From: Nitrosopumilaceae archaeon
GTDB lineage: Archaea > Thermoproteota > Nitrososphaeria > Nitrososphaerales > Nitrosopumilaceae
Reading direction: 5' to 3'
NCBI GenBank assembly: GCA_965208905.1
Contig: OZ242365.1
Span: forward strand, 640,001 to 704,000
DNA: 64,000 bases
Under the pieces are notes generated by a model that was not told the origin of the DNA, made no database searches, and saw nothing but the letters and a program-made list of their open reading frames with translations. Below, one piece after another: positions 3,957 to 28,286 of this stretch. Made by a program: the position numbers and the translations under genes. Each line of letters begins with the position of its first letter. Positions within the stretch are counted from its first letter, which is position 1.

Positions 3957-4838
3957 TCACTCCAAGGTATCAATCGACACTTTCTCAAACTTTGCCACGA
4001 GTTGTTTTGGCCTGATTTTTAGCGGGGTAAAGACGCGTTCCATAGAATAGTCGATGTAATCTTTTTCTGTGTCATAGTTTATACTCCGACGTCCCAAGGC
4101 AACGGCAACCTTTGCGGTCTGTCCCGAACCGCAGAACGGATCCAGGACCGTATCGTCCCGATATGAGTACATGTGTATCAGTCGGTGTGGTATCTCCTCA
4201 GGGAACGGACATGGGTGGTCCAACATACGAGGTGGGACAGGAGCTATATGCCAGACATTGTTGGCCACATCCATCTTGAATATTTCGTCTATCTCAAAAC
4301 GGGATGTCTCTATTGTGCCGTTGATCTGGTTATAGATGGGCTCGCCGGGCTTTCGAAACACCATGATATATTCGGTCATGATATTCGGGTAATAATATCC
4401 CGGATATGGTCTTTGTATGGTGACGCCTGCGCGTCTCACACCAGCCGTGGTCTTGTGCCATATTATATCTTGATGGAATAACCAGCCTGCCTGTACTAGC
4501 CGCGCTACTATATCGAATGGTACCGGTACATGGGTACCTTTCATCAATACAGTCCCTATTACAACTGCGCAGAATCCTCCCGGCTTTGTGACCCGTAGGA
4601 CTTCACCAAATATGCGTTGCATTAAAGCCAGATAGCCATCATAGTCATCGAACCCCTCTGCATACATTCGGGAGCGATACCACGATTCAGCGTTACGGGT
4701 ATGCGCATCATAGTCTATGGCATTCCAGTATGGGGGGGATGTTACAGTAAGAGATATTGTATCATCGGCGACTTGCCCCATCTGCTCGCTACTCTGACAG
4801 AAGAACTTTACATCATGTCTCTGAGTTTCGCCTGTCAC
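3957..4838 (-). CDS. Site-specific DNA methyltransferase (N4-C/N6-A, beta class), orphan
   Basis: TSPPYW catalytic motif precedes HPCPFP and VLDPFCGSG SAM-binding motif; no adjacent endonuclease seen. Confidence 0.9.
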   Translation of the reverse strand: MTGETQRHDVKFFCQSSEQMGQVADDTISLTVTSPPYWNAIDYDAHTRNAESWYRSRMYAEGFDDYDGYLALMQRIFGEVLRVTKPGGFCAVVIGTVLMKGTHVPVPFDIVARLVQAGWLFHQDIIWHKTTAGVRRAGVTIQRPYPGYYYPNIMTEYIMVFRKPGEPIYNQINGTIETSRFEIDEIFKMDVANNVWHIAPVPPRMLDHPCPFPEEIPHRLIHMYSYRDDTVLDPFCGSGQTAKVAVALGRRSINYDTEKDYIDYSMERVFTPLKIRPKQLVAKFEKVSIDTLE

Positions 4839-4881
4839 ATAGTTATTCTTTTTTCAATATATTTAATCTTGGTTATGAGGG

Positions 4882-5052
4882 GGTTCTGGGAAATCAACGG
4901 GACATGACATGGAAGCCGCAGGTATCACTATCGAGGGCAATAGCAAGTACCTAACCCTCATTCGAGCAGCCGCAGAATCAACATCTTAATCCCTCATTTT
5001 TTATGTCCCTAATTTCCCACTACATGTCATGTCCCGTTGATTTCCCAGAACC
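4882..5052. mobile_element. 171-bp MITE-like / internally deleted IS (probably IS6-related) with perfect 30-bp terminal inverted repeats
   Basis: GGTTCTGGGAAATCAACGGGACATGACATG at 4882-4911 and its exact reverse complement at 5023-5052; interior encodes EAAGITIEGNSKYLTLIRAAAES*, resembling a transposase C-terminal tail; no TSD seen. Confidence 0.7.
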
Positions 5053-6089
5053 GTTCGTTAATCATCGGTATCTCTCTCCATCCATTTTGGGTCCTTTTCT
5101 CTGATCGCTTTTGTGGCCTTTCTGACAGAAAATGCCTGTAGTGGTGTCTCGTAGTTGTCAATATCCAACGAAAAGTGAAGTCTGCGCTCATTATAGTACT
5201 CTATATAGGAAGATAGACTATCATAATGATGTATCTCTGTCTCTATACTACCGTGAAAGCGTTCCAGTTTGCCGTTTGTCTGCGGATGATACGGTCGTGA
5301 GTTTATCATCTCGATTCCACGGTCTAACAACTCGGCCTCAAACGCAGTAGGCTTCCATTTGCCCTTAGGTGAATCGTCATGCCTTCTTCCCCCGTTAAAA
5401 CACCTACCATTATCTGAGAGGATAGTGGCCGGTGTACCAAATCTCGCTATTGCTTGTCGCAGCACATCTACTACGTTTTCTGAGGTGGCTTCCTTGAATA
5501 GGGCAGCACCCGTTATACACCTTGATGAATCATCTAGAAATGTGACTAGGTTGAGCCCTGCAAAGCGTTGATCCTTCATTATATGCCAGTCAACATGCCA
5601 CATGGCATTGGAATATTTGCGCTCATACCTAACGTATTTTCTTTTTTTGGATTTTGCTACAGATGATGTGACTAGTCCATGTTCTTTCATTATGCGATAT
5701 ATGGTGGCATAGCTTATATTCGGATTGTCTTTTCTGACCCTCCTTGCTGTTCGTATGATGCCTACATCTTCCTCTGCATGTTTGTTCAACACGGTTCGGA
5801 CCTCCTCTGCCGACGGTGGTGGGTGGACTGGCCGGCCTGGCTTTTGTTGCACGTGTATCTGTCCTGTTCTTGTAAACTCTGCACATAGTCGTCCTACATG
5901 TTGTGGTGTTACACCTATATCGTCTGCTATGTCAACAAGCGTCTTACCCTTACCACGTTCCCTTATGGCGTATCGTATCTGTTTATCCGTCAACTTTGTC
6001 ATTTTCATCTTTTTTCGTGATCGATAAAGCGTGAAGTATTCCTTTGCTTGCAACCAGAACTTAGTCGAACCTAATTTTTGTACAACAGA
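5053..6089 (-). mobile_element. IS481-family element, one end truncated by the 4882-5052 element
   Basis: Right end CGAACCTAATTTTTGTACAACAGA resembles the end of the IS481 at 24743-25786; only GTTCG remains of the left end. Confidence 0.65.
5058..6053 (-). CDS. IS481-family DDE transposase
   Basis: N-terminal HTH, WHVDW..DDSSR, ILSDNG, HPQTNGKLERF; paralog of 24767-25751. Confidence 0.9.
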   Translation of the reverse strand: MQAKEYFTLYRSRKKMKMTKLTDKQIRYAIRERGKGKTLVDIADDIGVTPQHVGRLCAEFTRTGQIHVQQKPGRPVHPPPSAEEVRTVLNKHAEEDVGIIRTARRVRKDNPNISYATIYRIMKEHGLVTSSVAKSKKRKYVRYERKYSNAMWHVDWHIMKDQRFAGLNLVTFLDDSSRCITGAALFKEATSENVVDVLRQAIARFGTPATILSDNGRCFNGGRRHDDSPKGKWKPTAFEAELLDRGIEMINSRPYHPQTNGKLERFHGSIETEIHHYDSLSSYIEYYNERRLHFSLDIDNYETPLQAFSVRKATKAIREKDPKWMERDTDD

Positions 6090-6224
6090 TATTGAATAGT
6101 ATTCTATAGTCCTGAAATCAGTTCGCTATTTAAGATATAATCTCGGCGGTTCCTCCTGCAAGGCCGGGCGATGCCTGAAAAAGTGTCTCTACACGCTTGA
6201 ATAGTTTTTGGGATCATGGTAGAC

Positions 6225-6545
6225 ATGGTAGGCAAGAGGAAGCAGCGGAAAGGCAGGGCATCAGAACAGAGTATCAACAGGCGTGGACACCAGATCTATG
6301 AAAAGGGCGACCAGATCAAACCCTTGACCGGGTAGCACTGGGATGTGGCATCTCGAAGGGGAGGGCGTATTGTGTATGGTGTCACTCGGCTGCGGCAAGA
6401 CCACCTAAGAATGTCCCTATCATGTGCCCGGGAAAGGATGCAGGTGCAAGCACATAACCGCGGTTGAGTACATGCTGCTCAAAGATATCAAGCCCTCCCT
6501 CATGGGGAGGCTGATCATCGGAGAGGCGGGACTGAAGTGTCACGC
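6225..6545 (+). pseudogene. Degenerate N-terminal fragment of a SWIM zinc-finger-containing (IS6-like) transposase
   Basis: Interrupted reading MVGKRKQRKGRASEQ...G*HWDVAS ... *ECPYHVPGKGCRCKHITAVEYMLL (CxH..CKHI.AV); internal stops and frameshift. Confidence 0.55.
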
Positions 6546-6796
6546 CAAGTGGCCTGTATGTGTTGGTTCAGGTCGATTTTTGGGATACGATCTTGGATTT
6601 TAGATCAATTATCCGGCATTGCGGGAGGAATCTTTGAGTGAATGAGGTATAATGTACTGTATGATATGTGTCAAAAACATTCCGAGTTAACAATGGCTAC
6701 ATGGCCTGCCTGACCATTAAATTGAAATAACCTGCGCAACTATGTCTTGAGATCAGTCTGACTAGCACGTATGCTGCGAACAGATTACATCATGTG

Positions 6797-7951
6797 TCAT
6801 GCAGCTGATCTCTTTAGGTCTTCTACAGCCTCTAGTATTGTACATGTAGAGTCATCTACCTCTGTATTAGTTGTAAACCTGCCAAGACCTAGGCGTATAG
6901 ATTCATGAGCCTTATCCTCGGTGAGTCCTATGGCCAGCAGCACATGTGATGGCTCTACCATCTGCGTGGTACATGCAGAACCGGCCGATATGGCCACCTT
7001 GTCAGACACTGAATTTATTATTGCCTTACCTTCGATTCCGGGAAAACGTACATTCAGGTTGTGTGGTAGTCTATTTGTGGGATGACCGTTCAGTGTGGCG
7101 CCAAACTTTTGAAATCTTTCAAACATCATTCTAGTCCATGTGCGTTGCTGCTCCCCTTCAAGATTCATCTGGCTCTGTGCCAGGCGAGCGGCCTCACCAA
7201 AACCCACTATGCCAGCCACATTATGAGTTCCAGATCTTAACCCCAACTCCTGACCGCCCCCACGAATTATGCCATCTAGTTGTACTATTGGCCGTATACT
7301 GCGTATGTATAATGCTCCCACTCCCTTTGGCCCATACATTTTGTGCGCCGACATGGACATCAAGTCGATGTTCATCTTTTGCACATCCATAGGAATGTGG
7401 CCTACAGCCTGAGCTCCATCAGTATGAAACAGTATGTCGTGTTTGTGTGCCAGCTTACCCACCTCAGACACATTCTGTATGGTACCAATCTCGTTATTTG
7501 CAGTCATTATGGATATCAACACAGTGTCAGAAGTAATGGCCTCTCTGAGTTGTTCCATATCTACACTACCAAAACGGTCTACCGACACGTAGGTGACCGA
7601 GTATCCGAGTCTCTGGAGATGTCTTGCCGTATCCAGCACGGCCTTGTGTTCTATTGTACATGTCACAAGGTGTTTACCACGTTTATGATGTCTGGCCATC
7701 ACGCCCATCAATGCCATATTGTCAGCTTCAGTGGCTCCTGATGTGAATACTATCTCATCGTGGCGAGCCCCCACCAAATCAGCTACTCTCCCTCTAGCCT
7801 CATCTATGGCCACAAATGCCTCATGTCCCAGTGAGTGATCCAAACTGGATGGATTACCAAATTTCTCTGTCATATATGGCATCATATATTCAAGCACCCG
7901 AGGATCCATTCGGGTGGTGGCATGATTGTCCAGATATATGGTATGTTTCAT
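6797..7951 (-). CDS. dndA: Cysteine desulfurase DndA (IscS-type)
   Basis: YLDNHATT, FTSGATE, SAHKMYGPKG (PLP Lys), SAGSAC; 4-bp overlap with dndE. Confidence 0.9.
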   Translation of the reverse strand: MKHTIYLDNHATTRMDPRVLEYMMPYMTEKFGNPSSLDHSLGHEAFVAIDEARGRVADLVGARHDEIVFTSGATEADNMALMGVMARHHKRGKHLVTCTIEHKAVLDTARHLQRLGYSVTYVSVDRFGSVDMEQLREAITSDTVLISIMTANNEIGTIQNVSEVGKLAHKHDILFHTDGAQAVGHIPMDVQKMNIDLMSMSAHKMYGPKGVGALYIRSIRPIVQLDGIIRGGGQELGLRSGTHNVAGIVGFGEAARLAQSQMNLEGEQQRTWTRMMFERFQKFGATLNGHPTNRLPHNLNVRFPGIEGKAIINSVSDKVAISAGSACTTQMVEPSHVLLAIGLTEDKAHESIRLGLGRFTTNTEVDDSTCTILEAVEDLKRSAA

Positions 7952-8325
7952 GGGCCCCGTTCCATCTGGACAACCCTGTAAAAATCTCCTATGTCGTGTA
8001 TGCGCGCAAACAACATCACAACACCCCGGTTGAAATGAGCTCGAAGCATACGGTTTAGGTAAGTGTCCACATCTAGTCCATCATGTTTCAGCCGCAGTGT
8101 CATTAGAGCCAGAAAGATATCCTCATAGTCTCCAAAGAGAACTGCAGGAGCAATCTCTGAGCCCTTCTCGTCGTACTCGTCCGGATTTGGAGGAGATGGA
8201 TCCTTGAGGGATAGGCAGATGGCAAACCTACCTGCTATGTTGGGTGTTATGCCCGTACGCTTCTTTATTACTGCCAAGTTATTCTGACTCCTGCTACTCA
8301 TCCGAAGCCGACTAAATCTTCTCAT
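7948..8325 (-). CDS. dndE: DNA sulfur modification protein DndE
   Basis: 125 aa, GITPNIAGRFAICLSL and RAHFNRG motifs; lies between dndD and dndA. Confidence 0.9.
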   Translation of the reverse strand: MRRFSRLRMSSRSQNNLAVIKKRTGITPNIAGRFAICLSLKDPSPPNPDEYDEKGSEIAPAVLFGDYEDIFLALMTLRLKHDGLDVDTYLNRMLRAHFNRGVVMLFARIHDIGDFYRVVQMERGP

Positions 8326-10379
8326 CTCTCATCCCAAAAGTATCCTGTCCTCACCTGCGTCTGCCCCATTGTTTGATCATGCTGTATGGTGTATGACTTT
8401 GACAGATACGGTAAGAGCCGACTGTACTCATCCTGTCCTATCTCTGTATCTGTAGAGAAGAGTATGACCTGGTGTGATGCCAATGGAAAGAATCTATCTA
8501 CTAGATTCGAGCGATGCTCTGCATCTAATCTGGCCAATGGAGTATCTATCATGAACGGTAGAGGGCGCCCCGAAGTTCGGGCAAGGCCCCACAATATGGA
8601 CATGGATAACATCTGTCGTTCTCCCTGCGAGATTGTCTGCAAGGGTATCTCATTACTGTCCATATCGTATAATGCTATGTCAAATGTGTTGGGGTCTATC
8701 TTTACAGTTTTTATGAAATTCTGTTTATGCATAAGAGTGATCACAGTCTCAGTGATGTATGACTCTAAGAGAGCCATCTTTCTCTCTCGTAGTTTTTTAG
8801 CGTATATATCAAGAGCACGCTGAATGGTTTGGACGAGCTGGCCACTCCTTTGACTCTTTTCATTCTTGTACTGGCTTGCTCGTATATCTCGCATCTTTAT
8901 GGTTATGTGCTTTATCAGCGCCAAACCCGACGCTTTGCTACTCTCTATGGTGTCAATCTCTCCTTCAAGACGCCCCAACTCTTGACGCATTCTGCCTATA
9001 CGGGTGACGAGTGGGCCTATCTCATCATCAGATGGAGCTCTAATTATCGACTCTTCGAGTATGGTGATCTCTTCTTTGAGGCTATCATATTTAGATACGG
9101 CATCCTGAGCATGCTGTATACTATTTATGGAGTCCTGTATGATGTTTCGAATTCGCTCCTGCTGGCGGGTGGAGAAACCAAAGACTTCAGATGCGTTACC
9201 ATTCTTTGGTAATGACCTCTTTATCGCGTATAGTGTATTGTTTATGATATTGTCTTTATGCTGATTATCTATATGACATAATGATTCTGAGGCAGACAGT
9301 GTAGTCTGCACGTCTTGACATATGTCATTTATGATATCGGCCTTTATCCTATTTTGAGCTATCTGGTTATCGGTGTGAATCTGTTCTAACATCATACCTG
9401 TCTGTTCAGGTATAATCCCAAAGGGGAGAGTAGATGCGCAAAGACCACTGATAAAGTTTGTATGAGTCTCTATCTGGTTCCTCTTTATATCAAGTTGAGC
9501 TTGGATTTTATGACGTTTTTGCGCAAAACTACCTCCCATCTTGTTGAAGATGGCCTCTACCTCCTGAATCTGTACTAATATCCTATCTTTGTCGGCACTC
9601 TTTTCTACTTCCCTATCGTATAGTCTGTCTATCTTTGATTCGGCCTCACTCATTTGCTTGTTTAGTTCTTTGAACTCTGCTGCAAGATGCTTATCATCGC
9701 CTACAAGACTCCTCGTGAGGGTGGTATTTAGATCCGTCTGTAGCTGCTCTACTATATCTACTCCTAGTAGTGAATTCAAAGGGGACTTTATGTCGTATCT
9801 CTGTGCCATCATCATCACCTCCTCGCCATCAAAGAAGAACAAATCAAGTACCTCGGGAGGTATTAATCCATTTACAAAGGTCTGTAGCTGCTCTCTTCCT
9901 ATACTGTTTATATCCTTGAATATATCATCACCTTCACCACGTCTCTTGACTACCATCTCTTCGCTTATGCCATCCTTTGAGCGCCGCCAGAGGCGCTCCA
10001 CCATGAATTCCTCTATATGACCGCTCATATACATGAGAAACTCAACAGAGATGGAGGTCCGTCTCTCTGAGTCTCGGAGACGTTCGGTGCGGTCACGATG
10101 CATGAGTTTGTCTAATCTCTCTTTGTATTGTCTTCGTGGATATCTAAAGTCATAGCTGCCGTATAGGCACAGCCTGACCGACTCAAACAGAGTAGTCTTT
10201 CCGTCACCATTTCGTCCCCCTATCAGTATTATTGGTTTGGAGGGTGTGGTGGTAAAGTCGAATTGGTGCCTGTCTGCATAGGGACCATAGTTCTTGAGCG
10301 TTATACGTTTTAGAAGTATTTTATCATCACCTGACCTTACCGTATCTCTGCTTATCCAGCTGATTTTGTCGTAGATCAT
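8322..10379 (-). CDS. dndD: DNA sulfur modification protein DndD (SMC-like ATPase)
   Basis: GRNGDGKTT Walker A, FFFDGE, long coiled coil, ISQGE signature, MIDTPLARLD, QVILFSTD; exact start uncertain. Confidence 0.95.
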   Translation of the reverse strand: MIYDKISWISRDTVRSGDDKILLKRITLKNYGPYADRHQFDFTTTPSKPIILIGGRNGDGKTTLFESVRLCLYGSYDFRYPRRQYKERLDKLMHRDRTERLRDSERRTSISVEFLMYMSGHIEEFMVERLWRRSKDGISEEMVVKRRGEGDDIFKDINSIGREQLQTFVNGLIPPEVLDLFFFDGEEVMMMAQRYDIKSPLNSLLGVDIVEQLQTDLNTTLTRSLVGDDKHLAAEFKELNKQMSEAESKIDRLYDREVEKSADKDRILVQIQEVEAIFNKMGGSFAQKRHKIQAQLDIKRNQIETHTNFISGLCASTLPFGIIPEQTGMMLEQIHTDNQIAQNRIKADIINDICQDVQTTLSASESLCHIDNQHKDNIINNTLYAIKRSLPKNGNASEVFGFSTRQQERIRNIIQDSINSIQHAQDAVSKYDSLKEEITILEESIIRAPSDDEIGPLVTRIGRMRQELGRLEGEIDTIESSKASGLALIKHITIKMRDIRASQYKNEKSQRSGQLVQTIQRALDIYAKKLRERKMALLESYITETVITLMHKQNFIKTVKIDPNTFDIALYDMDSNEIPLQTISQGERQMLSMSILWGLARTSGRPLPFMIDTPLARLDAEHRSNLVDRFFPLASHQVILFSTDTEIGQDEYSRLLPYLSKSYTIQHDQTMGQTQVRTGYFWDER

Positions 10380-11835
10380 CTACTATTTGGTTTAGATCCT
10401 TACGCCACTCCTCATTTAGTATGGAGTTAATTTTGGCATATATGCGAGAGTGGCGCGTCATGTTATAATGTTCTAGCTCCGTATTCAGCAAGCGAGCCAC
10501 CAACTGTGCTGGAACATCTGCCTCTGCGCAAGTCTCCTCTAATATCTCCTGCTCCAGTCTGCCAAATGAACCAGCGTCGTTCTTGATTTGGTCCAAACCT
10601 CTACCCGTGACTTTCTTGTATGTCTCATATGCGGTGTTTCTCCAGTCACCTCGCTCCATTCTCCATATGCGCTGAATCTCATGTATTTCATCATCCTGTA
10701 TTAATGACATGTTTTCATCCGGACCATCCTGCCGCACCTTGTTCTGCGCAACTAACAGCTTCTCCAAAAACTGAATGCAAAACTCCATGGTGTATGGCCC
10801 TGGCACGAGTACTTCGTATGGGTCCGGCTCACCGGGCGCATTCTCACCGTGTTCGGCGCGAGACTGCGCAATCCTCTCTTGGAAGGCCTTCATGCGCATC
10901 TCTTCTACAAGCTTCATTTTACCATCCCTGCGCTTTAAGCTGCGTACACTCTTTCGTATTTTGGGGTCCTGAGTGTCCTTGAGCTCTTGGCGAAGCTCCA
11001 AGAGTGGATACATCCACTCCTCCCCGTTCTCTATCGTATTCTTTAATGATGTATCCTTGTCTACTACAGTGCAAGTCCAGCACCCGAATCTACTATTGCC
11101 ACAGGATGGTGTGTTGGTGTCGACCACCAATGGACACTCTGCAGCATTGGCGTTCTGATAGAGCGCCAACAGATCGCGGTTGTTACTCCCCCACGGATTC
11201 TTGTTTTGAAGTAGATAGTTCCAGATGTCTTTGGCGGTAAAGTCTCTTACTGGTGTGTAAACATACGTCTGTGGGAATTTGGAGTGGCGTGAGAGTAGAC
11301 TACCTTTTATCTCATACAAGTCCATCAGCTGCTGGCGCGAACCACTCTCGTCCCGGCGAGTCCCAAGTACTACTATGGCCTCACCGTACTCTGAGACCTT
11401 CTCCTTTATGAAACGATCGGCATTCTTTATCTTGAGACGCTCGGTGCACCAACGGAACATGTTGGTGGGGGCTGGAAAGCCTTTGCCCAACAGACAGACC
11501 CAGAAGCTGTCCTGTATCAATGGGCGGACCAAGTTTGTGGATATTGGCAGAGATATCTCCTTGGCCGCCGACTCCATCATGTCTAAGGCGCCTACTATCT
11601 GCTGTACAATCTTTGGTGACTCTACTAGTGTGTCTGATGATATTATGAAGACTGCTTTATGCAACTTTTCAGATGGCAGCATCTTTAATGCATTCCATAT
11701 CAATTGTACCATGCAGGTAGAGTCTTTACCGCCACTAAAGCCCAGTATCCATGGTCGTGTATCTGATAGGTATACGTCCTGTATCTCACGGTAGATATCT
11801 TGTATAGTTCGAGATTTAAAGACAGACTCTGCCAT
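10327..11835 (-). CDS. dndC: DNA phosphorothioation sulfurtransferase DndC (PAPS-reductase family)
   Basis: GFSGGKDS, SDTLVE, FRWCTERLKI, GTRRDES, ECPLV..SCGNSRFGCWTCTVV. Confidence 0.97.
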   Translation of the reverse strand: MAESVFKSRTIQDIYREIQDVYLSDTRPWILGFSGGKDSTCMVQLIWNALKMLPSEKLHKAVFIISSDTLVESPKIVQQIVGALDMMESAAKEISLPISTNLVRPLIQDSFWVCLLGKGFPAPTNMFRWCTERLKIKNADRFIKEKVSEYGEAIVVLGTRRDESGSRQQLMDLYEIKGSLLSRHSKFPQTYVYTPVRDFTAKDIWNYLLQNKNPWGSNNRDLLALYQNANAAECPLVVDTNTPSCGNSRFGCWTCTVVDKDTSLKNTIENGEEWMYPLLELRQELKDTQDPKIRKSVRSLKRRDGKMKLVEEMRMKAFQERIAQSRAEHGENAPGEPDPYEVLVPGPYTMEFCIQFLEKLLVAQNKVRQDGPDENMSLIQDDEIHEIQRIWRMERGDWRNTAYETYKKVTGRGLDQIKNDAGSFGRLEQEILEETCAEADVPAQLVARLLNTELEHYNMTRHSRIYAKINSILNEEWRKDLNQIVDDLRQNQLDKQRYGKVR

Positions 11836-11842
11836 TATGCTA

Positions 11843-12227
11843 CTACCACTTTACACCAAACGAGTCAATGGATCTTGAAACACCACACGCCCTTAGTATT
11901 TCACCAGCAGCAGCTTTTATTCCAGTCTTATTTTTTAGCATCTTGCCATGTAACATCAGCTTACCATCCCACATTTTACAGTCTCGTGACCAGTCAATTT
12001 TGCGCATATTTTTGATACGTTGCCTCCATGAACTATTATAATGATATACAAGAATATGTCCTACCATCCCTAACGCAACCAAAACATTGGTGTGCGCATG
12101 AACGTATCCCTGACGAAGCTCATACGGCATAATTTTGTTCTTTAATAATAAATCCCATTGAGGAATACTTTGAGCCACCTCGCGCCAATAATCGGCTGCT
12201 TGTTTCTGCTTCTCGGATGAGATTGAC
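11843..12227 (-). pseudogene. dndB: dndB C-terminal fragment (downstream of the IS3 insertion)
   Basis: Removing the IS and one TGAC copy joins ...INTKS|ISSEKQKQAADYWREVAQSIPQW...YVHAH...DWSR..W in frame. Confidence 0.88.
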
Positions 12228-12284
12228 TGGAGTGGACCCCATAGAATGTTACTGTTTTCGGCATGATTTTACATACATCTTCCA

Positions 12285-13142
12285 TCATTTATTTGTCATC
12301 TCCAACTGTTCGGCAAATTCTACTGGTGTCATGTATCCGATAGAGGAATGAATCCTCTCGGTGTTGTAATCTACAAAGGCCTTTGCAATGATCGTCTCTG
12401 CCTCCTGATAGTTCGCAAACTCGTGCGGCCAGATGTATTCCTTTTTCAGCGTCTTGTGAAATGATTCGACATGTCCGTTCTGCTCCGGCGTATTCTTGTA
12501 GATGAATTCATGTTTGCCGATGCCAAGGGCCTGGACCGCATGTCTAAAGTCGCGGCTCGTATACTGGTTGCCGTTGTCCGTACGCAATCGTAATTGTGAG
12601 CAGTCAGGTTTCTCTGCGGCAACCGCGTTGGTGATTGAGGTGATTGCAATGTCTCGTGTGGCATTGACATCAAACGCGTAGGCGATCCACTTGCGCGTAA
12701 AGCAGTCAATTACGTTGAAGCAGTAGCACCAGCCGTCTATACCGCACCAGATGTATGTGATGTCCGTCTCCCACAACTGGTGTGGGGCTTTGGGTTTGAA
12801 GAGCTTTTGACCCGCTCGAATGATGTCGTTTTTGGTATTTTGTGGCTGGATGTAGCCCATTTTGCGATATATCCGCTGTATCTGCTTGCGGTTCACCACA
12901 ATTCCCGTATCGCGCGTTATCTGGGCCGCCATGCGCCGTGTGCCGTACGTGGGCCTCTTTCTGCTCGTATCTAGCACAGTGCTCAATATATCCGGATTCA
13001 ATCCCATGTCTCTGGGCTTGGGTTTGTAGTACCATTGGCGCCTGGATACGCCCGCATACCCTAGCGACTTGCGCAGGCTCAAATGTTGTTCCTGCATGAT
13101 TTTTACCGCGTTCAATCGTTGCTTGCCTCCAAGGTTTTTTTT
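12285..13142 (-). CDS. IS3 transposase OrfB (DDE), expressed as an OrfAB fusion by -1 frameshift
   Basis: YGTRR, WETDITY, IDCFTR, RTDNG.QY, NGHVESFHKTLKKE; slippery TTTAAAAAAAAC (T8 at 13135-13142 on the + strand) in the orfA/orfB overlap. Confidence 0.9.
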   Translation of the reverse strand, partial: KKNLGGKQRLNAVKIMQEQHLSLRKSLGYAGVSRRQWYYKPKPRDMGLNPDILSTVLDTSRKRPTYGTRRMAAQITRDTGIVVNRKQIQRIYRKMGYIQPQNTKNDIIRAGQKLFKPKAPHQLWETDITYIWCGIDGWCYCFNVIDCFTRKWIAYAFDVNATRDIAITSITNAVAAEKPDCSQLRLRTDNGNQYTSRDFRHAVQALGIGKHEFIYKNTPEQNGHVESFHKTLKKEYIWPHEFANYQEAETIIAKAFVDYNTERIHSSIGYMTPVEFAEQLEMTNK

Positions 13143-13402
13143 AAAGCGTCGTTTGCGATTGTCAGATCCCCTATGATTCGCTTTAGGTCGCCGTTCTCCT
13201 TTTTGATGGCCTTTATCGGATCCTTCTTTCCGTGATGGGTCAGTCCGGACTTGCCTGCGTCCATGAACTTTTGCCGCCAGGCTTGAAACGTTTGGGGATG
13301 AACGTTGTGCTTGCGGCACAGCTCGGCCGTGCCAATATTGGTCTTGATTGATTCCAAAACGATCTGGATCTTTTGGTCTGGAGTAAACTTTGTTCTTACC
13401 AT
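13112..13402 (-). CDS. IS3 transposase OrfA (HTH plus leucine zipper)
   Basis: KFTPDQKIQIVLES..AELCRKHNVHPQTFQAWR..ENGDLKRIIGDL. Confidence 0.9.
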   Translation of the reverse strand: MVRTKFTPDQKIQIVLESIKTNIGTAELCRKHNVHPQTFQAWRQKFMDAGKSGLTHHGKKDPIKAIKKENGDLKRIIGDLTIANDALKKTLEASND

Positions 13403-13474
13403 GGCATCATCCCTCCCATTACGACTTTAAGCTGTATGAACGTGAGTGTTCTCATTCTAGCGGGGTCCCCACCA

Positions 13475-14244
13475 TGACTTTGTGTTAATTTTAAGCATAT
13501 GCTGTGTTGCTTCTGATATACCATTTAATGTAAAGAGGTTTTTTGAGCGATGCCCGATATTGGTCTTTTCCATTTCGGTTCTCCCACTAAATATTTCAAT
13601 ATCATTTGCCAAATTAACAACAAATCTGGCAAACTGATCCCTGTGGTCATATAGTATGCCCAGTGATTTTGTGGGTTTAATTGCGTGCTTGTTCAAGTCG
13701 GCAAACATCTGTTGACTCTGTTTGAGGCCTACATCCTCAAAGAATACGACTGGTATCTTTTCACCCCGCAGCTCTGGCTTGGTCTCATAAGCTTTTCTGA
13801 TGGCAGCACACCTATGTTGGCCATCGTTTATGAGTATGGGTGCATCAATGGGTATGCGCAAGGTCCCCATACGGGCAGACTCTCCTAGTCCAGGAGCTGG
13901 GAAAAAGATCAAATGACCGCCCACAGACACCGTAATGGCTGAGAATATGTAGCTGTCAAGATTGTTCAATATGTAATCGACCATATTGGGTATACGAGAC
14001 TGACGAAGTTTCCTCTGAGCCCTTAAAGTGGGCGGTATCTGTGGATCTTCATTAAATTTAAAGTGATTATACAGGGTGGCAAACGAACACGCGCCAGTAT
14101 AAAATTGGCGATGGCCCTGTCTTCCCCGTATGACATCAAATGATATTAAGCCGGTCTCATGGTCTATCTCTTTAAAAGGTATGGCTTTAGCGCGCCCTGC
14201 TACGCCATTAGCTGGGGGGGGGGGGTCATGGTAATTTGGGCCAT
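13475..14244 (-). pseudogene. dndB: dndB N-terminal part (DGQHR domain), out of frame at a G12 tract
   Basis: IRGRQG..FY, RAQRKL, YIFSAIT, INDGQHR, QQMFADLN; ATGs at 14244/14229 are one base out of frame with the body across the G12 run; reconstructed gene is 383 aa. Confidence 0.88.
14214..14225. repeat. G12 homopolymer just after the dndB start codon
   Basis: 12 consecutive G; G13 or G10 would restore the frame. Confidence 0.9.
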
Positions 14245-14650
14245 GTTTTAATCACTTGTACGCATATTTTTAACTGTTTTTATTTTTTAATTTGTTGAAC
14301 AACTGCAATATGTTTAAAACAGAACAAAAAAGCTGATCTGCGAATTAAAAATGATAAAGTTTTGTAAAAATAATTTGGAACTAAACCTGACATTATCTAG
14401 ACTCTTGGATGGTAATAGTAATACTCTGACAGAATGGTGTGATGCAATAGAATATTGCAGTTTTAATAATAAACAAAATGGCAGGGAGGCATATGGACAT
14501 CGAAATTGACTCACACGAGTTGACTATTGATAATCTTTGTAAACAAGATGCGGGGCTGTCTGATAGGTGTACTCTTGCTACTCGCGGCCCAATTACGGGC
14601 GGTCCGGTTCTCTGGCCAGATGCAGTGAAGTATGAGGTGCAATATCGATT

Positions 14651-16342
14651 ATGACATATTCTGTAGCAACACATACTATTCGTCATATGCTAGATCACGA
14701 TAAGTACGAGGTGCCACGATATCAGAGGGGATATGCATGGAGCGATAAACAAGTTGATCAATTCTGGGAAGATCTGGAATATGCAATGAGTATGAATAAA
14801 GATAAACATTTTTTTGGAACAATCTATACTGACGGTTTTGATAAGATACTTGATGGTCAACAGAGAATAACTACAGTATTTCTATTTTTACTAGCTGCCA
14901 AAAATTATCTAAAGACTAAAGATGCTAAAGATGATATGATCAATCGTTTGGAAAAACACCTGCTTAATGAAACAAAACCAAAGCTAATACTAAGCAAGTT
15001 CAATGACGAGTATTTTCAAGAATTAGTGAACGACAGCTCCAATATCAAGAGATCACCTAGTGACTTCGAAAATGATTCCAATTATAATATGTCTAAAGCA
15101 TATCGCAAGCTTCATGAAAAAATTACACAGTATGGAAATAAGAAAGGCTTGAACACTGTGAAAAAATTGATTGAAAAACTACTCCATGACTTTCAAGTAA
15201 TACAAGTTCTTGTTACGAACAGTTCTGATGCATACTCTATGTTCAACTTAGTAAATAATCGAGGCATACCTCTAAACCAATACGATCTAATTAGAAATCA
15301 CATCTTTGCCGAATTAGAGCAACTTAATGTAGATGAACGACAAATAGAAGATGTTGACAAAAAATGGAGCCAAATAGCTAAAAACACCCGTAAATCTACT
15401 AACTACACCATAGATGTATTTATCCAACATATTCTTAGTTTTAAACGTGATAATGTACCTGTCAAAGATATTTTTAAAGCATTAAAAAAGGAAGTTAAGC
15501 CAGGTGAGATGCTGAAATGGGTAGCTGACGCAAACGAATGGTCTACAATCGTCAAAACTCTACGCAAACCAAATGGTAATTTTTGTGATCATGCTGGAAG
15601 AAGCTATGATTCTGAAAGACACATCAAAAGGATAAACACTCTCGGCGCCGTCGCAGTGTATCCTCTTTTAATGGTGGGGTTTACCAAGTATTGGGATAAA
15701 AGAGATTATGCGTCATTTAACATATTGTCAGAGGTGTGTTTAAAGTACCATCTAGTAGCCAAAACCATAGGAAATGCAAGCGTTAGCGAATATCAGAATA
15801 GTTTATTCAAAATTGCTCGGAACTGCTACAAAAAAGATTGTGATGTAAATGAGATCATAGATGCACTCTGCGCTACACATTCGTATATCTCCGACAAAGA
15901 CTTGGAATCAATGCTTATGGCGTATAAACCTCGCCGCCAACCAGCGCTGATTCTTTTAGAACTTATCGAAGCAGAACATAGTGACACGATATCTCACAAT
16001 ACAGTAACAGTTGAACACATCATGCCAAAGACTATTGGCAAATGGCTAAAATACATCTGTAAAATTCATGATCAATGCTCTGATGAGTACGCTGAAGGCA
16101 TACATCAAAAATACTTTAATCGTCTGGGAAATTTAACCTTACTAAACAAAGTTCCAAACTCACGCTTGGGTGATAATTCTTTTGCAGTTAAATTGAAGAC
16201 ATATGGTAAGTCAAACTACCAAATAACAAAAGAAATTGCTAGTGAAGAACAATGGGGTCAAGCTCAAATTGAAAGAAGACAAAAGAAATTTGTTACAGAG
16301 CTTAAAAAAATATTAGATATAAAATCCTTACAAACAAAATAA
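14651..16342 (+). CDS. DUF262-DUF1524 protein (GmrSD/SspE-like NTPase plus HNH nuclease)
   Basis: VPRYQRGYAW, FFGTI, ILDGQQRITT, FNLVNNRG.PL; C-terminal VEHIMP and RLGNLTLL..N; AT-rich; divergent from dndB. Confidence 0.9.
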   Translation: MTYSVATHTIRHMLDHDKYEVPRYQRGYAWSDKQVDQFWEDLEYAMSMNKDKHFFGTIYTDGFDKILDGQQRITTVFLFLLAAKNYLKTKDAKDDMINRLEKHLLNETKPKLILSKFNDEYFQELVNDSSNIKRSPSDFENDSNYNMSKAYRKLHEKITQYGNKKGLNTVKKLIEKLLHDFQVIQVLVTNSSDAYSMFNLVNNRGIPLNQYDLIRNHIFAELEQLNVDERQIEDVDKKWSQIAKNTRKSTNYTIDVFIQHILSFKRDNVPVKDIFKALKKEVKPGEMLKWVADANEWSTIVKTLRKPNGNFCDHAGRSYDSERHIKRINTLGAVAVYPLLMVGFTKYWDKRDYASFNILSEVCLKYHLVAKTIGNASVSEYQNSLFKIARNCYKKDCDVNEIIDALCATHSYISDKDLESMLMAYKPRRQPALILLELIEAEHSDTISHNTVTVEHIMPKTIGKWLKYICKIHDQCSDEYAEGIHQKYFNRLGNLTLLNKVPNSRLGDNSFAVKLKTYGKSNYQITKEIASEEQWGQAQIERRQKKFVTELKKILDIKSLQTK

Positions 16343-16967
16343 GATTGAATGAAGCATTTTGATAATTTATAGCAAAGGTCTGATTTAATCAAGATCCAGT
16401 AATAAATGTACACTCTAACCTAAATTTGCGTGCCACTCATACTCTGAATTGTGGGGTATTATCAGTCCTAGATAATGCTGTTAATCCTGAATTGTCCAAC
16501 GTCGCCGAACCAAGCGACTAGATTGTGACTTGTAAAAAGGTCGGAACTGTCCTTGTCTTTAGGACCATTAATCTCAAACATAATATCATCCGTCAGTAAT
16601 GCCTTGGTGAATTTTAGAAATTTCTTGTTGCTCTGCCTGTTTTTTATAAATTTCTGGACATTTGTTATTGCAAGAATTTTTCTAAAATTTTATACATGGA
16701 TATACACTGTCTAATTACATTGGACAGTGCATATCAAACAAAATTCCCATAACCACACTGGAAGATTAGTTCGTATACAAAACAATAAAAATATGATACT
16801 ATACTGAGCGTAAACTTGTGTTTCAGCGCGTGAAATGCACACTTAAACAATAACAGTATAAAATAATTTTGCTAAAAACATACCAATTCCCATATTTTCT
16901 AATTTATTGACACATTTTTGAATATAATACAGGTTACGCACAGTCTCCAGTTTTACTTACCCAAATC

Positions 16968-17744
16968 TTATGCCCATGCTACAATTTTGTAATCTTGCTC
17001 GTAAAGTCCCAGAAATATGCCAAGAGTAATTCTTGGAGTGTCCCCTGTTACTCTTGTTACCTGATGATAGTATGCAGGATTAATAATAACCAAATCGCCC
17101 GTATTAATGCTAGACTCTCGCCAAGTGGAGATATCTTTAGGCAGTTCCAATGAATATCCAAAGTCAATGTTTCGAAGGCGCTCATCAGCCTTTTTCCATC
17201 GTCTGTTATGTATGATCAACTCTCCTCCACCCTCTGACTCTTGAAGATGGAGCACGCATGATATCTGATGGTCAATATTTGATAATGCATACTCCCTGCC
17301 CTCGTATGTCACATTGTCTTTATGAATTGGTATTGACATTCCTTTTTCGTGTATTCGAATTACAGCTTGTGAATAATAGTTTTGAAATTCATGCGCAAGA
17401 GAGACAGAATATTCTGGCAACATCTGGCCAACTGTATGATGTATGCGATATATTGGGTTGTTTATGCCACGAAAAATTTTTTTAAATATGTTTTGAGATT
17501 CTTTGGCACTTTTAAAATATTTTTTCTTGTTGGTTGTATGAGCCATTAGAAATGGACCTATATGTTTTAGTTTTCCATTTTGAAACGTACTATTATTACA
17601 TTTTTTTATATTATCAACTGCAATTTGACATTCTTTCTTGTTATAAAATCCACGGACTATTATCATCGGATTTTTCCCAGATATAAGACACCATAAGTCT
17701 GTATTATTTATCTGCGAATAATCAACTATTTTGGATGCCCACAT
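16968..17744 (-). CDS. 2-oxoglutarate/Fe(II)-dependent oxygenase
   Basis: IPIHKD (HxD), GGEL, GDLVIINP.YYHQV (distal His), RITLG (2OG-binding Arg). Confidence 0.8.
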   Translation of the reverse strand: MWASKIVDYSQINNTDLWCLISGKNPMIIVRGFYNKKECQIAVDNIKKCNNSTFQNGKLKHIGPFLMAHTTNKKKYFKSAKESQNIFKKIFRGINNPIYRIHHTVGQMLPEYSVSLAHEFQNYYSQAVIRIHEKGMSIPIHKDNVTYEGREYALSNIDHQISCVLHLQESEGGGELIIHNRRWKKADERLRNIDFGYSLELPKDISTWRESSINTGDLVIINPAYYHQVTRVTGDTPRITLGIFLGLYEQDYKIVAWA

Positions 17745-18031
17745 CAGTATCCGCCAGCGCCTGAATGCGACACTCTCCCCAAAAGTACCCCAGCCGCATC
17801 CCTCTTCTCAACTTCACATTTTAGAAAAGCATCAATCACGGACTCTTTTAGTGATTCTTTGGTCCAACTGCTCATATCGTACGGCATGCCCGGCAAGTTC
17901 GCAGAAGTTATGGTCACTCTTTCATTATCTGAATAATCACCCCTGTTTCCATCCTTTCTGTGCGTTACGTTTAGGACAAATGAGTTGTTAGATAGCACAT
18001 CAGAGCCATTTCCCCATATTATATCTGTCAT
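17744..18031 (-). CDS. Hypothetical 95-aa protein translationally coupled to the 2OG oxygenase
   Basis: TGATG stop/start overlap at 17744; AT-rich TATA-like sequence upstream. Confidence 0.65.
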   Translation of the reverse strand: MTDIIWGNGSDVLSNNSFVLNVTHRKDGNRGDYSDNERVTITSANLPGMPYDMSSWTKESLKESVIDAFLKCEVEKRDAAGVLLGRVSHSGAGGY

Positions 18032-18456
18032 GATACACTTTGTTGTTTTTTCATATATTAATAGTACTAAAGAGTGTTAGTTTTGGCACTAGAAGATTTT
18101 TACCTCTATACATTGATAAATTTCATCATTGTTCCGTATTTTTAAAATAATTATTTTGTAATAATTTTGTGATTTAGAGACTGACGAACTGCCATAATAT
18201 GCTTGCAATACCAGTGGCGCCCCTTCATTCCACGTATTGCAAAATCGGTACATGTGCATAGCTAGAATTTCTTAAATCTACACACCTCGTAGGATTTGTC
18301 ACCTGTTTCAGATTCAACAACAAACATTTCTAGATATGGCTTCTTGACAAGATTTGCTTCATATGTCTCACTTCCACGTTTTTAGCGTGCATCTTTCTCG
18401 TCTGGCTCTATAATGTGTACACTATATCATCACTGAAAACATTTTTAAAAAATTAA

Positions 18457-18571
18457 GGGAATTATATACAAAAGCGACAACTACTAATGTTATCTAACGT
18501 TCTGAGGTACAGTACATGCTTGACTGAGATCAGTAATTAATATTATAAGGTCACTTTTGTATGTAATTCCC
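18457..18571. mobile_element. 115-bp MITE related to the IS1595 family
   Basis: TIRs GGGAATTATATACAAAAGCGAC / GGGAATTACATACAAAAGTGAC (20/22); 8-bp TSD AAAATTAA (18449-18456, 18572-18579). Confidence 0.85.
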
Positions 18572-19012
18572 AAAATTAACACCTTGTATAATAACTAGCC
18601 GCCTAATCTATTACAACTATAGATCATCAACTATCTTTGATCCATTCATTACTTCGTCTACCTCTATACCTATTTCTGCTAGTTCACGTAAAATTTTTGA
18701 TGCAGGTGCATTTTGTATACTCTCGTTTGCAATATGATTAAATTTTACTACCTCCTCTCATATTTTGATATATTAATTAAAATTTTATACACGTGGTTCT
18801 TGTGAACATTTGAAGGTTATCTGGATTCTACAATTTCAGAGCTCGTGTCTTTGGTCAGGGTAGCCAGTTTTATCTATATTGTACGAGAATCAGACCGCAC
18901 TAATTTGAAGAGGTACGCGAAAGACTACTTTAGGCCTTATCAACAAGGTGGATTGAGGAGTAGGTTGTTTTCATGCAACAAGTTCTTAAACCATCTTTAC
19001 CACGCTCTTGAT

Positions 19013-20329
19013 GTGCCTGCTAATTATAAGATCCCCGATCCCATTCACGGACATCTTAACGTTCCAGACTGGCTGATAGAGATCGAAAACTCTCCACCAA
19101 TAAGACGTATGCTGAGCATCAGACAGCTGGGGCTAAAATCGATCATAGATTTTCCCGGTGCGATTCACACTAGATATGGCCATGCACTCGGCGCCATGCA
19201 CCTGTCTGGACTTTTGGTGGATAGATTGTCTGAAAAAATCCAGAATGATGGACGAAGTAAAATTGCTGAAAACCTGAAAAACAACAAAAACAACCTTATG
19301 GCTGCAGGACTGCTCCATGACATTGCGCACGGTCCTTTTTCTCATGCAGTAGATTTTGTTTTGAGACAAACCTCGCAGATAACTCATGAGGAACTTGCAG
19401 AACAAGTAATCTGCAACGATCTTGCCGAGCCGCTTACAAACCATGGGATCACCCCGGAATCTGTGGTCAAGATAATCAACAACACTCACGACTTCAAATT
19501 CGTCTCAGGGATAATCAATGGTCCAATAGATATTGACAAGCTTGATTACCTTTTGCGTGATGCACACCATGTTGGCCTGAAATACGGCTTTGATCTGGAA
19601 CATTTTGTGGACTCGTATACAGTCCTTGGAGACGACTCTGAGCTGAACAAATGCATGCTGGGACTGGAAAATACCCATGCGGCCTTGGTTACTTCTGAGA
19701 TCTTCGTGCTGATCTGGAAAAGCATGTACGATCTAGTCTACCATGTCCAAGATTCTAGGATTGCAGAGAAGATGCTTGAGAAGGCCACGCTGCTGGGTAT
19801 TGACGAAGATGATGAGCTAAAACAGTGTTTTGTAGACAAGAATACTCTTTTAACCTTGGACGACGATAAACTGCTCCACTTGCTTAGTCAGTCCAAACAT
19901 CATTACACAAAGGTATTAGAAGAAAAAATACGTAATAGGAAGTTGTTTGTACCAATGAATGAGATTATGCTTTATGAAACCACAGACATCAATGACAAGT
20001 TTATATCAAGGGTTACAACAGCCCCGTCTCATGAAATAGATCAGATGAGCGACCGACTGAGCTCCGCACTATCAAGCGAACTGGGCTTGGAGAAGTACCA
20101 TGCCATCTGCGACATTGTAAAGTCTCGAGCCCCATCCGATATATTCATACGGAACAGTGAATCCGATGCTGGTGAGCCTGAAAACTTAAGGGAAAAATCA
20201 GACATCATCAAGGCGATCAAGCAAAGGACTACGATGAGAATCTACATGGATCCCGCCCAAGTCGAGCCCACAAAAAATCTTTTAAAGGAAAAAATAATCA
20301 CCGTAATAGATGCGGAGGCAAATGTATAA
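19013..20329 (+). CDS. HD-domain phosphohydrolase (SAMHD1/YwfO/dNTPase-like)
   Basis: IPDPIHG, RQLG, PGAIHTRYGHALG, LLHDIAHGPFSHA, DIDKLDYLLRD, VYH; start reassigned to GTG 19013 (TTAAA box about 25 bp upstream). Confidence 0.88.
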   Translation: MPANYKIPDPIHGHLNVPDWLIEIENSPPIRRMLSIRQLGLKSIIDFPGAIHTRYGHALGAMHLSGLLVDRLSEKIQNDGRSKIAENLKNNKNNLMAAGLLHDIAHGPFSHAVDFVLRQTSQITHEELAEQVICNDLAEPLTNHGITPESVVKIINNTHDFKFVSGIINGPIDIDKLDYLLRDAHHVGLKYGFDLEHFVDSYTVLGDDSELNKCMLGLENTHAALVTSEIFVLIWKSMYDLVYHVQDSRIAEKMLEKATLLGIDEDDELKQCFVDKNTLLTLDDDKLLHLLSQSKHHYTKVLEEKIRNRKLFVPMNEIMLYETTDINDKFISRVTTAPSHEIDQMSDRLSSALSSELGLEKYHAICDIVKSRAPSDIFIRNSESDAGEPENLREKSDIIKAIKQRTTMRIYMDPAQVEPTKNLLKEKIITVIDAEANV

Positions 20330-24742: not shown

Positions 24743-25786
24743 TGTATTATGTCGAAATTATTTCGCCTAGTCATCGGTGTCCCTCTCCATCCATTCTAAG
24801 TCACTCTTCCTGACATCATCTGGTACTTTTTTGTTGTGAAATGCCTGTAGCGGGGTCTCGCCATTGTTTATGTCTAAAGACCAGTGCAGTCGCACCTCGT
24901 TGTAGTACGCGACAAACTCCGCTAGGCTGCCAAAATGACATAGTTCTTCTTCCAAGGTGCGGTGGAACCGTTCAAGCTTGCCGTTTGTTTGTGGGTGGTA
25001 GGGGCGGGTGTTGATCAACTCAATACCCCGGTCAAGCAGCTCTGCCTCAAATATAGTGGGGGTCCATGATTTTGCAGGAATCTTTCTTCTCACACCCACA
25101 AAGCACGATCCGTTGTCGGAGAGTATGGTGGCCGGGGTTCCAAACTCAACAATGCTATTTTGCAGGACTGTTACCGCGTTCTCGGATGTGGCCCCCTTGA
25201 ATATCATGGCTCCAACCACACATCTTGACGCATCATCAAGATATGTGATTAATTGGTAGCCTTGAAAACGTGGATCTTTCATCGCATGCCAGTCCGTATG
25301 CCACATCGCATTGGAGTATCTGCGCTCATAGCGTATCCATTTACGCCTGCGCGATTTTGCTGCAGATGGAGTGACCATATTGTTTTCTTTCATGATTGTG
25401 TATACCGTTTTTTCACTTATTTGTATGCCCTTGTGATTTAAGTACTTGGTGATCCTTGTGACGCCTGCTGGCATTATACGATGTGCTGCTAGTACGACGT
25501 TGGTTTGCTCCTCGGTGGGAGGAATCTTGGGTCTGCCTGGCATTTGTAGTGTGGGAATCTTGCCCGTTGCACGATACATTGCCCAGAGTTGTTGTACGCG
25601 TCTCTGGCTAATCTTCATCTCTGTAGCAATGTGTGATGTACTACTACCTTTCCTGCATTGTCGAATGATATAATCTATCTGCTTCTGTGTCAGATTGACT
25701 CTCATGGGTTTGCGTGATCTATATAGACTAAAATATTCTTTGGTTGGCAGTCTAAAGTTAGGGCGAACTAATTTCCGCACAATAGA
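24743..25786 (-). mobile_element. IS481-family element (1044 bp) with a 16-bp target site duplication
   Basis: TIRs TGTATTATGTCGAAATTATTTCGCC / TCTATTGTGCGGAAATTAGTTCGCC; direct repeat GCTCCAAAAATTCACC at 24727-24742 and 25787-25802. Confidence 0.9.
24767..25751 (-). CDS. IS481-family DDE transposase
   Basis: WHTDW, DDASR, ILSDNG, HPQTNGKLERF; start uncertain (ATG 25705 or an upstream non-ATG codon, since KEYF.LYRSRK is conserved with the other copy). Confidence 0.9.
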
Positions 25787-25840
25787 GCTCCAAAAATTCA
25801 CCCAACAAGTTTAATAACAGGATTGGCAGTCTCTTAAATT

Positions 25841-28282: not shown

Positions 28283-28286
28283 AACA

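Follow-up and report, generated by a model that had tools for sequence, protein, structure and literature searches.

This analysis concerns a dnd DNA phosphorothioation gene cluster and a nuclease gene of 563 amino acids (aa) divergent from it, at positions 6797-16342 of a 64,000-nucleotide stretch (the window; G000:C1:640001-704000) from the genome of a Nitrosopumilaceae archaeon. This source genome (G000) is a single contig of 2.21 Mb, is 99.57% complete and encodes an archaeal AmoA (387 bits). We used G-numbers for genomes, L-numbers (L005, L006, L007, L008, L027 and L270) for relative loci and X-numbers for public runs. The nuclease proteins of L005, L006, L007 and L008 are 98%, 73%, 29% and 31% identical to that of the source genome, respectively, and L027 is the canonical DndI of a dndG-dndH-dndI operon beside dndBCD, carried by genome G001. 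The locus contains the following features:

6797-7951, - strand: cysteine desulfurase (IscS/NifS family) in the dndA position, the last gene of the operon; Aminotran_5, 284 bits
7948-8325, - strand: dndE; Pfam DndE, 84 bits; TIGR03184, 75.3 bits (cut-off 71.85)
8322-10379, - strand: dndD, SMC/ABC-type ATPase; TIGR03185, 445 bits (cut-off 246); PADLOC DndD, 530 bits, full length
10327-11835, - strand: dndC, PAPS-reductase-type sulfurtransferase (PAPS, phosphoadenosine phosphosulfate); TIGR03183, 504 bits (cut-off 290); PADLOC DndC, 604 bits
11843-12227, - strand: 3' fragment of dndB (pseudogene piece); DndB profile positions 238-336 of 338; in L005, an uninterrupted continuation of the 5' part
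12228-13474, - strand: IS3-like element of 1247 bp with TG...CA ends and rve, rve_3 and HTH_21 domains, which splits dndB
13475-14255, - strand: 5' fragment of dndB, with a GTG start at 14255; DndB profile positions 52-218 and a DGQHR domain
14256-14650, no strand: divergent intergenic region between dndB and the nuclease gene, presumed from its position to be a shared promoter region
14651-16342, + strand: dndI-like gene, 563 aa; Pfam GmrSD_N (DUF262; E = 3.7e-37) and GmrSD_C (DUF1524; E = 7.9e-21)

An earlier note on this DNA had described dndC, dndD, dndE and dndA as intact, and all four genes were indeed uninterrupted open reading frames (ORFs) with full-length profile matches. DndC, DndD and DndE all exceeded the NCBIfam equivalog cut-offs. 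The dndA product scored 523 bits with PADLOC DndA and exceeded the cut-off of NCBIfam NF002806 (IscS subfamily), and its score of 426 with TIGR03235 (DndA) was under the cut-off of 480. Because dndB was present as two fragments, the cluster is best written as dndB(pseudogene)-CDEA. The distance from dndC to the nuclease gene is 2.8 kb, and a 97-aa ORF at 14393-14686 (- strand) overlaps the start of the latter; this ORF had no Pfam, PADLOC or NCBIfam match and is probably not a gene.

The ratios of nonsynonymous to synonymous substitution rates (dN/dS) of dndC, dndD, dndE, dndA and the nuclease gene ranged from 0.03 to 0.21 against the 96-97%-identical relative, values that mostly reflect the history before the insertion into dndB. 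The ratio was 0.03 for dndC (against L005), and 0.16 and 0.19 for the nuclease gene (against L005 and L006, respectively); by this measure, the nuclease gene is under purifying selection. In the comparison with L006, the synonymous rate (dS) was 0.76 for the nuclease gene (14651-16339) and 4.5, a saturated value, for dndC (10330-11835), with similar protein identities (73% and 76%, respectively). The low dS of the nuclease gene may reflect a composition effect or a more recent exchange of this gene.

Affinities of the 563-aa nuclease

The coordinates and motifs that the earlier note had given for a DUF262 (DGQQR) plus DUF1524/HNH gene at 14651-16342 were confirmed, as was its head-to-head orientation to dndB, although the latter proved to be a pseudogene. 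The DGQQR, EHIMP and GNL motifs occupy residues 68-72, 455-459 and 493-495, respectively. The N-terminal DUF262 NTPase domain carries P22, Y24 and Q25 in addition to D68GQQR72, and the C-terminal DUF1524 HNH domain carries E455, H456, N494 and N503. The protein thus has the layout of DndI, in which an N-terminal DUF262 domain with DGQQR and a C-terminal DUF1524 HNH domain are joined in one protein of ~560-600 aa. Residues D68 to R72 were invariant in alignment A1, which comprised 29 sequences of nuclease homologues and was used for both residue conservation and structure modelling.

We compared the nuclease with the PADLOC profiles of related defence proteins. The top-scoring profile was HEC-06 (PDLC04157; 287.6 bits), which aligned residues 4-548 with profile positions 8-548 of 558, followed by a full-length match to Orf5, which is DndI (215 bits; residues 9-539 on profile positions 7-542 of 543); orf5 was renamed dndI in 2014 (PMC4198939). 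The matches to SspE (45 bits) and mREase_IV (37.5 bits) were both partial. The canonical DndI L027 scored 660 bits with Orf5 and also 236 bits with HEC-06, and the HEC-06 profile therefore fails to separate the two kinds of protein.

A sequence search of the Protein Data Bank (PDB; E <= 1) returned a single match, namely 9JFL, the DndI of Salmonella (E = 5.4e-16). The AlphaFold2 model of the nuclease, built with the 29 homologues, had a predicted local distance difference test score (pLDDT) of 86.2 and a predicted template modelling score (pTM) of 0.76. In a Foldseek search, the top match of this model was again 9JFL, over the whole length and with template modelling (TM) scores of 0.67/0.64, followed by SspE (7DRS; 0.46/0.35) and then BrxU (0.39). 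Since 9JFL was released in December 2024, later than the training of AlphaFold2, the model should not be a memory of this structure. The earlier note had called the effector SspE-like; the full-length Orf5 match of 215 bits against a partial SspE match of 45 bits, the TM score of 0.67 against 0.46 and the sole PDB match to 9JFL place it nearer to DndI.

Mutations in Salmonella DndI were reported to abolish the response to phosphorothioate (PT) (Y25A), the ATPase activity (R87A), and the nickase activity and defence (N541A) (PMC11662687). In the HMMER alignment to 9JFL, these three residues corresponded to Y24, R72 and N503 of the nuclease, of which Y24 and R72 were invariant in A1 and N503 was conserved in at least 90% of the sequences. 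Because such motifs are common to the whole DUF262/DUF1524 superfamily, their conservation is indicative of an intact enzyme and not of PT specificity.

Linkage to dnd and other Dnd partners

We surveyed the best 80 homologue loci each of genome contigs and metagenome contigs for dnd neighbours (tblastn, E <= 1e-5). Among the best 80 genome-contig loci, five had dnd neighbours, namely the four closest relatives (L005, L006, L007 and L008) and the canonical DndI L027; beyond the clade of the nuclease, the fraction was 1/76. The best 80 metagenome-contig loci (median length, 5.8 kb) included none with dnd neighbours and added no clade members, and their matches were all distant (<=45% identity over a 68-residue piece, and <=30% for the full-length ones). 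Because generic GmrSD-like genes rarely adjoin dnd, the linkage observed here is more than chance would give.

We then examined 401 genomes of the family to which the source genome belongs (nuclease, E <= 1e-10; DndC, E <= 1e-20). A nuclease match was found in 40 of them (including the unpublished G212) and DndC in 64. The nuclease match reached at least 216 bits in eight genomes, and in six of these (G000, G090, G107, G072, G019 and G390) the gene was located within 5 kb of dndC. In the seventh, G085, it followed dndA on a separate short contig (L270). In the eighth, G044, it lay 563 kb from dnd and was split by a TGA codon; this was the sole top-scoring copy not beside dnd.

Two trees, one of 97 rows (FastTree) and one of 44 rows (IQ-TREE, LG+C20 PMSF, with SH-aLRT support), agreed with each other. 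The nuclease belonged to a clade of eight rows (support 99), all of which were dnd-adjacent (8/8), and this clade was nested in a wider clade of 22 rows (support 93), of which 17 were dnd-adjacent. The genomes of the wider clade carried dndC in 20 of 21 cases, compared with 64/401 in the family, as determined by a hand cross-check of the tables. Within the eight-row clade, the nuclease gene occurred in four placements: head-to-head with dndB, upstream of the operon in the same direction, and downstream of dndA in either the same or the opposite (convergent) direction. These four placements argue for selection on proximity, and not for a single inherited arrangement. The earlier note had proposed a neighbourhood survey and had reckoned with a nuclease that clusters with stand-alone GmrSD enzymes and lacks recurrent linkage; the uniform dnd adjacency of the eight-row clade is the opposite outcome.

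One member of the linked group, L007:1-12142, is a contig titled as a Deltaproteobacteria metagenome-assembled genome (MAG). It carries the same nuclease-dndBCDEA cassette, with a DndC 65% identical to that of the source genome, and a 696-aa ORF after dndA (9668-11758). Its nuclease is sister to a Nitrosopumilaceae nuclease, and its non-dnd flank had no match in the source genome. Either interdomain transfer or a mis-binned contig could account for this locus.

In known systems, the same PT-writing module serves as the self mark with other effector sets, namely DndCDEA with PbeABCD in haloarchaea and DndBCDE with DndFGH in bacteria; the effector differs in the present locus, and neither set was found in the source genome. 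The survey in PMC6459918 reported no dndFGH near any of 39 archaeal dndCD clusters, most of which were followed by a pbe cassette. The PADLOC DndH and DndG profiles had no match in the source genome, whereas they matched the control G001 with E values of 2e-181 and 1.5e-176. TIGR03236, TIGR03237 and TIGR03238 (DndF/G/H) also had no match in the source genome, and none in any control genome either; the absence of a DndF match in the source genome thus comes from an uncontrolled TIGR model only.

The PbeC profile (PDLC02723) matched only DndD (106 bits) and a 34-bit fragment in the source genome, compared with 331 and 243 bits in the controls G120 and G090, and a search with DndD as the query detected no second DndD/PbeC-like gene there. 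Because the PbeA profiles are generic helicase profiles, which matched in 11/14 and 14/14 control genomes, only full-length PbeA matches were counted. The best match of the PbeA profile PDLC02707 in the source genome was a 224-aa partial one (79 bits), compared with full-length matches of 752 and 622 bits in G120 and G090; these searches covered PbeA and PbeC and not the small PbeB and PbeD. The earlier note had seen no dndFGH or pbe genes in the window and had suggested a search of the rest of the genome, where their presence would speak against the proposed pairing. The controlled DndG, DndH, PbeA and PbeC profiles bear out the first statement and revealed no such genes elsewhere on the single contig.

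To describe the partners of Dnd across the family, we used 75 dndC-centred stretches of up to ~19.5 kb, many of them cut by contig ends, from 61 of the 63 other DndC-positive genomes, after dropping four fragmentary matches. A GmrSD-like ORF was present in 18/75 stretches (two of them weak and two cut by the end of the stretch), PbeA- and/or PbeC-like ORFs were present in 25/75 (PADLOC confirmed five of the 14 loci scanned), and 7/75 contained both kinds. Neither kind was found in 39/75 stretches, many of which were short contigs. G120, which belongs to the same genus as the source genome, carries pbeA-pbeC beside dndBCDEA. In the 98%-identical relative G090, the DndI-like gene adjoins dnd, and full-length pbeA (622 bits) and pbeC (243 bits) lie ~490 kb away, at G090:C1:1833297-1837921. 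Even within one genus, the partners of Dnd therefore differ, and in many Nitrosopumilaceae Dnd is accompanied by a lone DndI-like nuclease, by PbeA/PbeC or by the two together.

State of the dndB gene

The earlier note treated dndB as a gene and overlooked two lesions, which we read from translations and from the alignment with L005 and L006. The DndB profile matched two separate ORFs, at 13457-13984 and 11843-12178, on either side of the IS3-like element. The transposase ORF of this element (12285-13319) encodes 344 aa, and the element is flanked by a 4-bp target duplication, TGAC, at 12224-12227 and 13475-13478. The source genome contains 13 copies with at least 99.8% identity; a comparison of the flanking sequences of all 13 defined the ends and duplications, and most copies had 4-bp target duplications. 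These observations point to recent activity of the element in the genome of an ammonia-oxidising archaeon. The other lesion is a frameshift, caused by one inserted nucleotide (A) at 14226 that adjoins a 12-C tract (14214-14225); it leaves the GTG start, eight codons and a premature TGA (14228-14226), and the start is that used in L005. The source genome accordingly has no intact DndB regulator, the gene being both split by the insertion sequence (IS) and frameshifted.

Both lesions were absent from L005. The alignment displayed a clean 1247-bp insertion in the source genome, and L005 contains the identical 12-C tract without the extra A. In X1 and X3, two runs that contain 99% of the sampled words and possibly derive from the source sample, the flank contigs enter the IS by ~28 nt on both sides, and the extra A is present. 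In contrast, 12223/12224 is joined directly to 13475/13476, without the IS, in one X5 contig (16.5 kb) and in one X9 contig, and the X5 contig also lacks the extra A. Because both lesions are absent from the X5 relative and from L005, they appear to be recent in the source strain. The 12-C tract may favour either slippage or errors of assembly, and the frameshift at the start of dndB was suspected to be such a homopolymer artefact; the X1 and X3 contigs agree with the extra A, although, as possible products of the source sample, they are not independent proof.

DndB has been described as a negative regulator that limits PT (PMC10853773), and haloarchaeal dndCDEA functions without DndB (PMC6459918). 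For both reasons, the loss of DndB by itself should not stop modification. In the source strain, dndCDEA is now separated from the native promoter region by the IS; since the transposase ORF of the IS has the same direction as the operon, read-through into dndCDEA is conceivable.

Interpretation of the locus and its surroundings

On the basis of the gene content, the architecture and residue conservation of the nuclease, its closest sequence and fold match, its recurrent linkage to dnd and the lack of any DndFGH or PbeA/PbeC match in the genome, we favor, with moderate confidence, a DndI-type restriction-modification module based on PT, carried by an ammonia oxidiser of the Nitrosopumilaceae. 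From homology to bacterial systems, DndA would take sulfur from cysteine, and DndC, DndD and DndE would install PT at short motifs in host DNA. By analogy with Salmonella DndI, the C-terminal HNH domain of the 563-aa effector would nick PT-free DNA, and the N-terminal DUF262 NTPase would sense PT via the Tyr24 patch. PT on self DNA would stimulate the NTPase, and NTP hydrolysis would close the effector and release the marked self DNA. PT synthesis, the sensing of PT by the effector and its nicking activity are all inferred here from these bacterial counterparts.

The closest known system is IscS-DndBCDE-DndI of Salmonella enterica Cerro 87, in which a DUF262-HNH effector (PDB 9JFL) is coupled to dndBCDE, and 61 genomes with dndBCD and dndI but without dndFGH have been reported (PMC11662687, NAR 2024). 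The two systems share the presence of Dnd PT writers beside one DUF262(DGQQR)-DUF1524(HNH) protein, and the conserved counterparts of Y25, R87 and N541. However, the present locus differs from the Salmonella system in its archaeal host, in the inclusion of dndA in the operon (order B-C-D-E-A) and in its dndB pseudogene. In addition, the nuclease gene is divergent from dndB and outside any dndFGHI operon, and its product shares only ~17-18% identity with DndI. The earlier note had proposed a hybrid Dnd-SspE-like module: the pairing of Dnd genes with a single DUF262-HNH protein, in place of DndFGH or PbeABCD, stands, but this pairing is not unprecedented, given the published DndI.

The system type is thus already published in bacteria, and what is new is the archaeal example. 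A word search of the supplementary file of PMC11662687 returned no 'Nitroso', 'archae' or 'Methano', and of its eight 'Halo' matches the two displayed were Halomonas. Two papers on sponge Thaumarchaeota mention DUF262/DUF1524 'dndB-like' genes in dnd-bearing genomes, in passages that do not present them as a coupled effector. Our literature searches on DndI/DUF262, phosphorothioation and archaea did not retrieve any description of an archaeal DndI-type effector. The locus reveals no new principle; it extends the DndI-type system across domains as a compact two-part module (dndCDEA plus one gene), and the source strain, a natural dndB null, could serve to test what role the regulator plays. To our knowledge, antiviral defence in ammonia-oxidising archaea is poorly known, and Pbe in haloarchaea is the only PT-based system demonstrated in archaea.

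Several observations weigh against a DndI-type module. Five of the 22 rows of the wider clade were not beside dnd: G298, which is fragmented; G120, G059 and G026, in which dnd is located elsewhere in the genome; and G182, a 95%-complete MAG in which no DndC was found and in which the nuclease ORF is intact. Because the rows are kin, the linkage counts overstate independence. The canonical DndI L027 fell outside the 22-row archaeal clade, on a long branch in a basal fork without resolution; as it branches separately there, orthology with canonical DndI is not established. The best PADLOC profile is HEC-06, a GmrSD-like defence reported to be single-gene and embedded, and identity to 9JFL is low (17-18%). 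The P-x-YQR/DGQQR motifs do not prove PT sensing, since they are general to DUF262. Finally, the GC content of the nuclease gene (0.37) is below that of the dnd genes (0.44-0.47), and dndB is disrupted, with a possible polar effect of the IS on dndCDEA.

A more far-reaching version of the PT-coupled reading is possible, although we hold it only tentatively. In this version, a GmrSD-like lineage of the Nitrosopumilaceae themselves would have been co-opted by Dnd separately from bacterial DndI and would form a PT-reading family of its own, not orthologous to the bacterial protein. It would be exchangeable with PbeABCD or added to it, and mobile as a cassette with dndBCDEA, possibly into bacteria (L007). 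The loss of dndB would then mean derepression and hyper-modification, a condition under joint selection with the effector.

As an alternative to PT coupling, the nuclease might be a stand-alone type IV enzyme of the GmrSD/HEC-06 kind, embedded beside Dnd as BrxU is in BREX, which attacks modified viral DNA without reading PT. HEC-06 is a GmrSD-like defence that is embedded in Hma systems and acts as a single gene, and BrxU is likewise embedded (bioRxiv 10.1101/2024.01.29.577857). The nuclease has the same two-domain architecture as HEC-06, its top-scoring profile family (288 bits, full length), and belongs to the same DUF262-DUF1524 superfamily as the GmrSD/BrxU type IV enzymes, which act on DNA with modified bases and do so without a modification module of their own. 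The region also resembles a small defence and mobile-element island, with a methyltransferase gene (3957-4838) and transposases, and the five non-adjacent rows of the wider clade fit such an enzyme. However, the immediate clade was dnd-adjacent in 8/8 rows despite its four gene orders, and the only non-adjacent top-scoring copy (G044) is broken. The HEC-06 score loses weight in view of the 236 bits of canonical DndI L027 with the same profile. The context here is dnd, without any Hma match among the 14 proteins of 3957-20329 that were scanned, and the best solved structure match is DndI and not BrxU, which formed only the third fold group, with mREase_IV restricted to its partial match. We therefore regard a stand-alone enzyme as unlikely.

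It is somewhat more doubtful that the nuclease is coupled to PT by the logic of SspE, that is, inactive without PT and switched on as a nickase against invaders by PT on self DNA. SspE, the effector of SspABCD, also combines a DUF262 NTPase with a DUF1524 nickase and reads PT via a Tyr-containing hydrophobic patch; the nuclease has a Tyr equivalent to Y30 of SspE and Y25 of DndI, and SspE chains were the second-best fold matches. An effector of this type would be harmless if the IS had silenced dndCDEA, which would fit the survival of the strain. However, SspE chains are ~770 aa in length, and SspE is PT-activated and partners the single-strand PT writers sspABCD. The PDB sequence search (E <= 1) returned no SspE chain, the profile matches were weak and partial (<=45 bits), and the fold fit was poorer (TM 0.46/0.35 against 0.67/0.64 for DndI). 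The neighbours are the double-strand PT writers of dnd and not sspBCD, although sspB and sspC were not searched for genome-wide.

Least probable is a decaying module, silent in the source strain, whose intact ORFs are recent relics: the two independent lesions of dndB, the 13 near-identical copies of a highly active IS now lying before dndCDEA, and the absence of the IS and the 1-nt insertion from relatives (L005 and the X5 contig, with the IS-skipping joint also in the X9 contig) agree with decay, but dndC, dndD, dndE, dndA and the nuclease gene are all full-length, their dN/dS values are low (although mostly acquired before the insertion), PT in haloarchaea does not require DndB, which acts as a repressor in bacteria, and the co-directional transposase ORF might allow read-through.

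A PT-coupled DndI-type module thus remains the reading that we prefer, and the surroundings of the locus offered some further observations. Besides the nuclease gene, a low-GC stretch at 14001-20000 (0.35-0.38, compared with 0.44-0.49 around it) includes a WelO5/2OG-Fe(II) oxygenase-like gene (16968-17744) and a gene for an HD-domain protein with HD_assoc_2 (18845-20329). To the left of the dnd cluster, synteny with L005 begins only at 6508. The methyltransferase gene at 3957-4838 encodes an N6/N4 DNA methyltransferase (PADLOC type II methyltransferase, 217 bits) with no obvious restriction partner among the proteins scanned, and is adjoined by an rve transposase gene (5058-6053) different from that which splits dndB. 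Far from the window, a second GmrSD_N gene lies in a 902-aa open frame (G000:C1:1545062-1545670), near the partial PbeA-profile match at 1537870, and the two may belong to another defence island. Elsewhere in the window, three consecutive large genes (741-813 aa) with thrombospondin type 3 repeats occupy 25841-32610, preceded by an rve transposase gene at 24767-25801.

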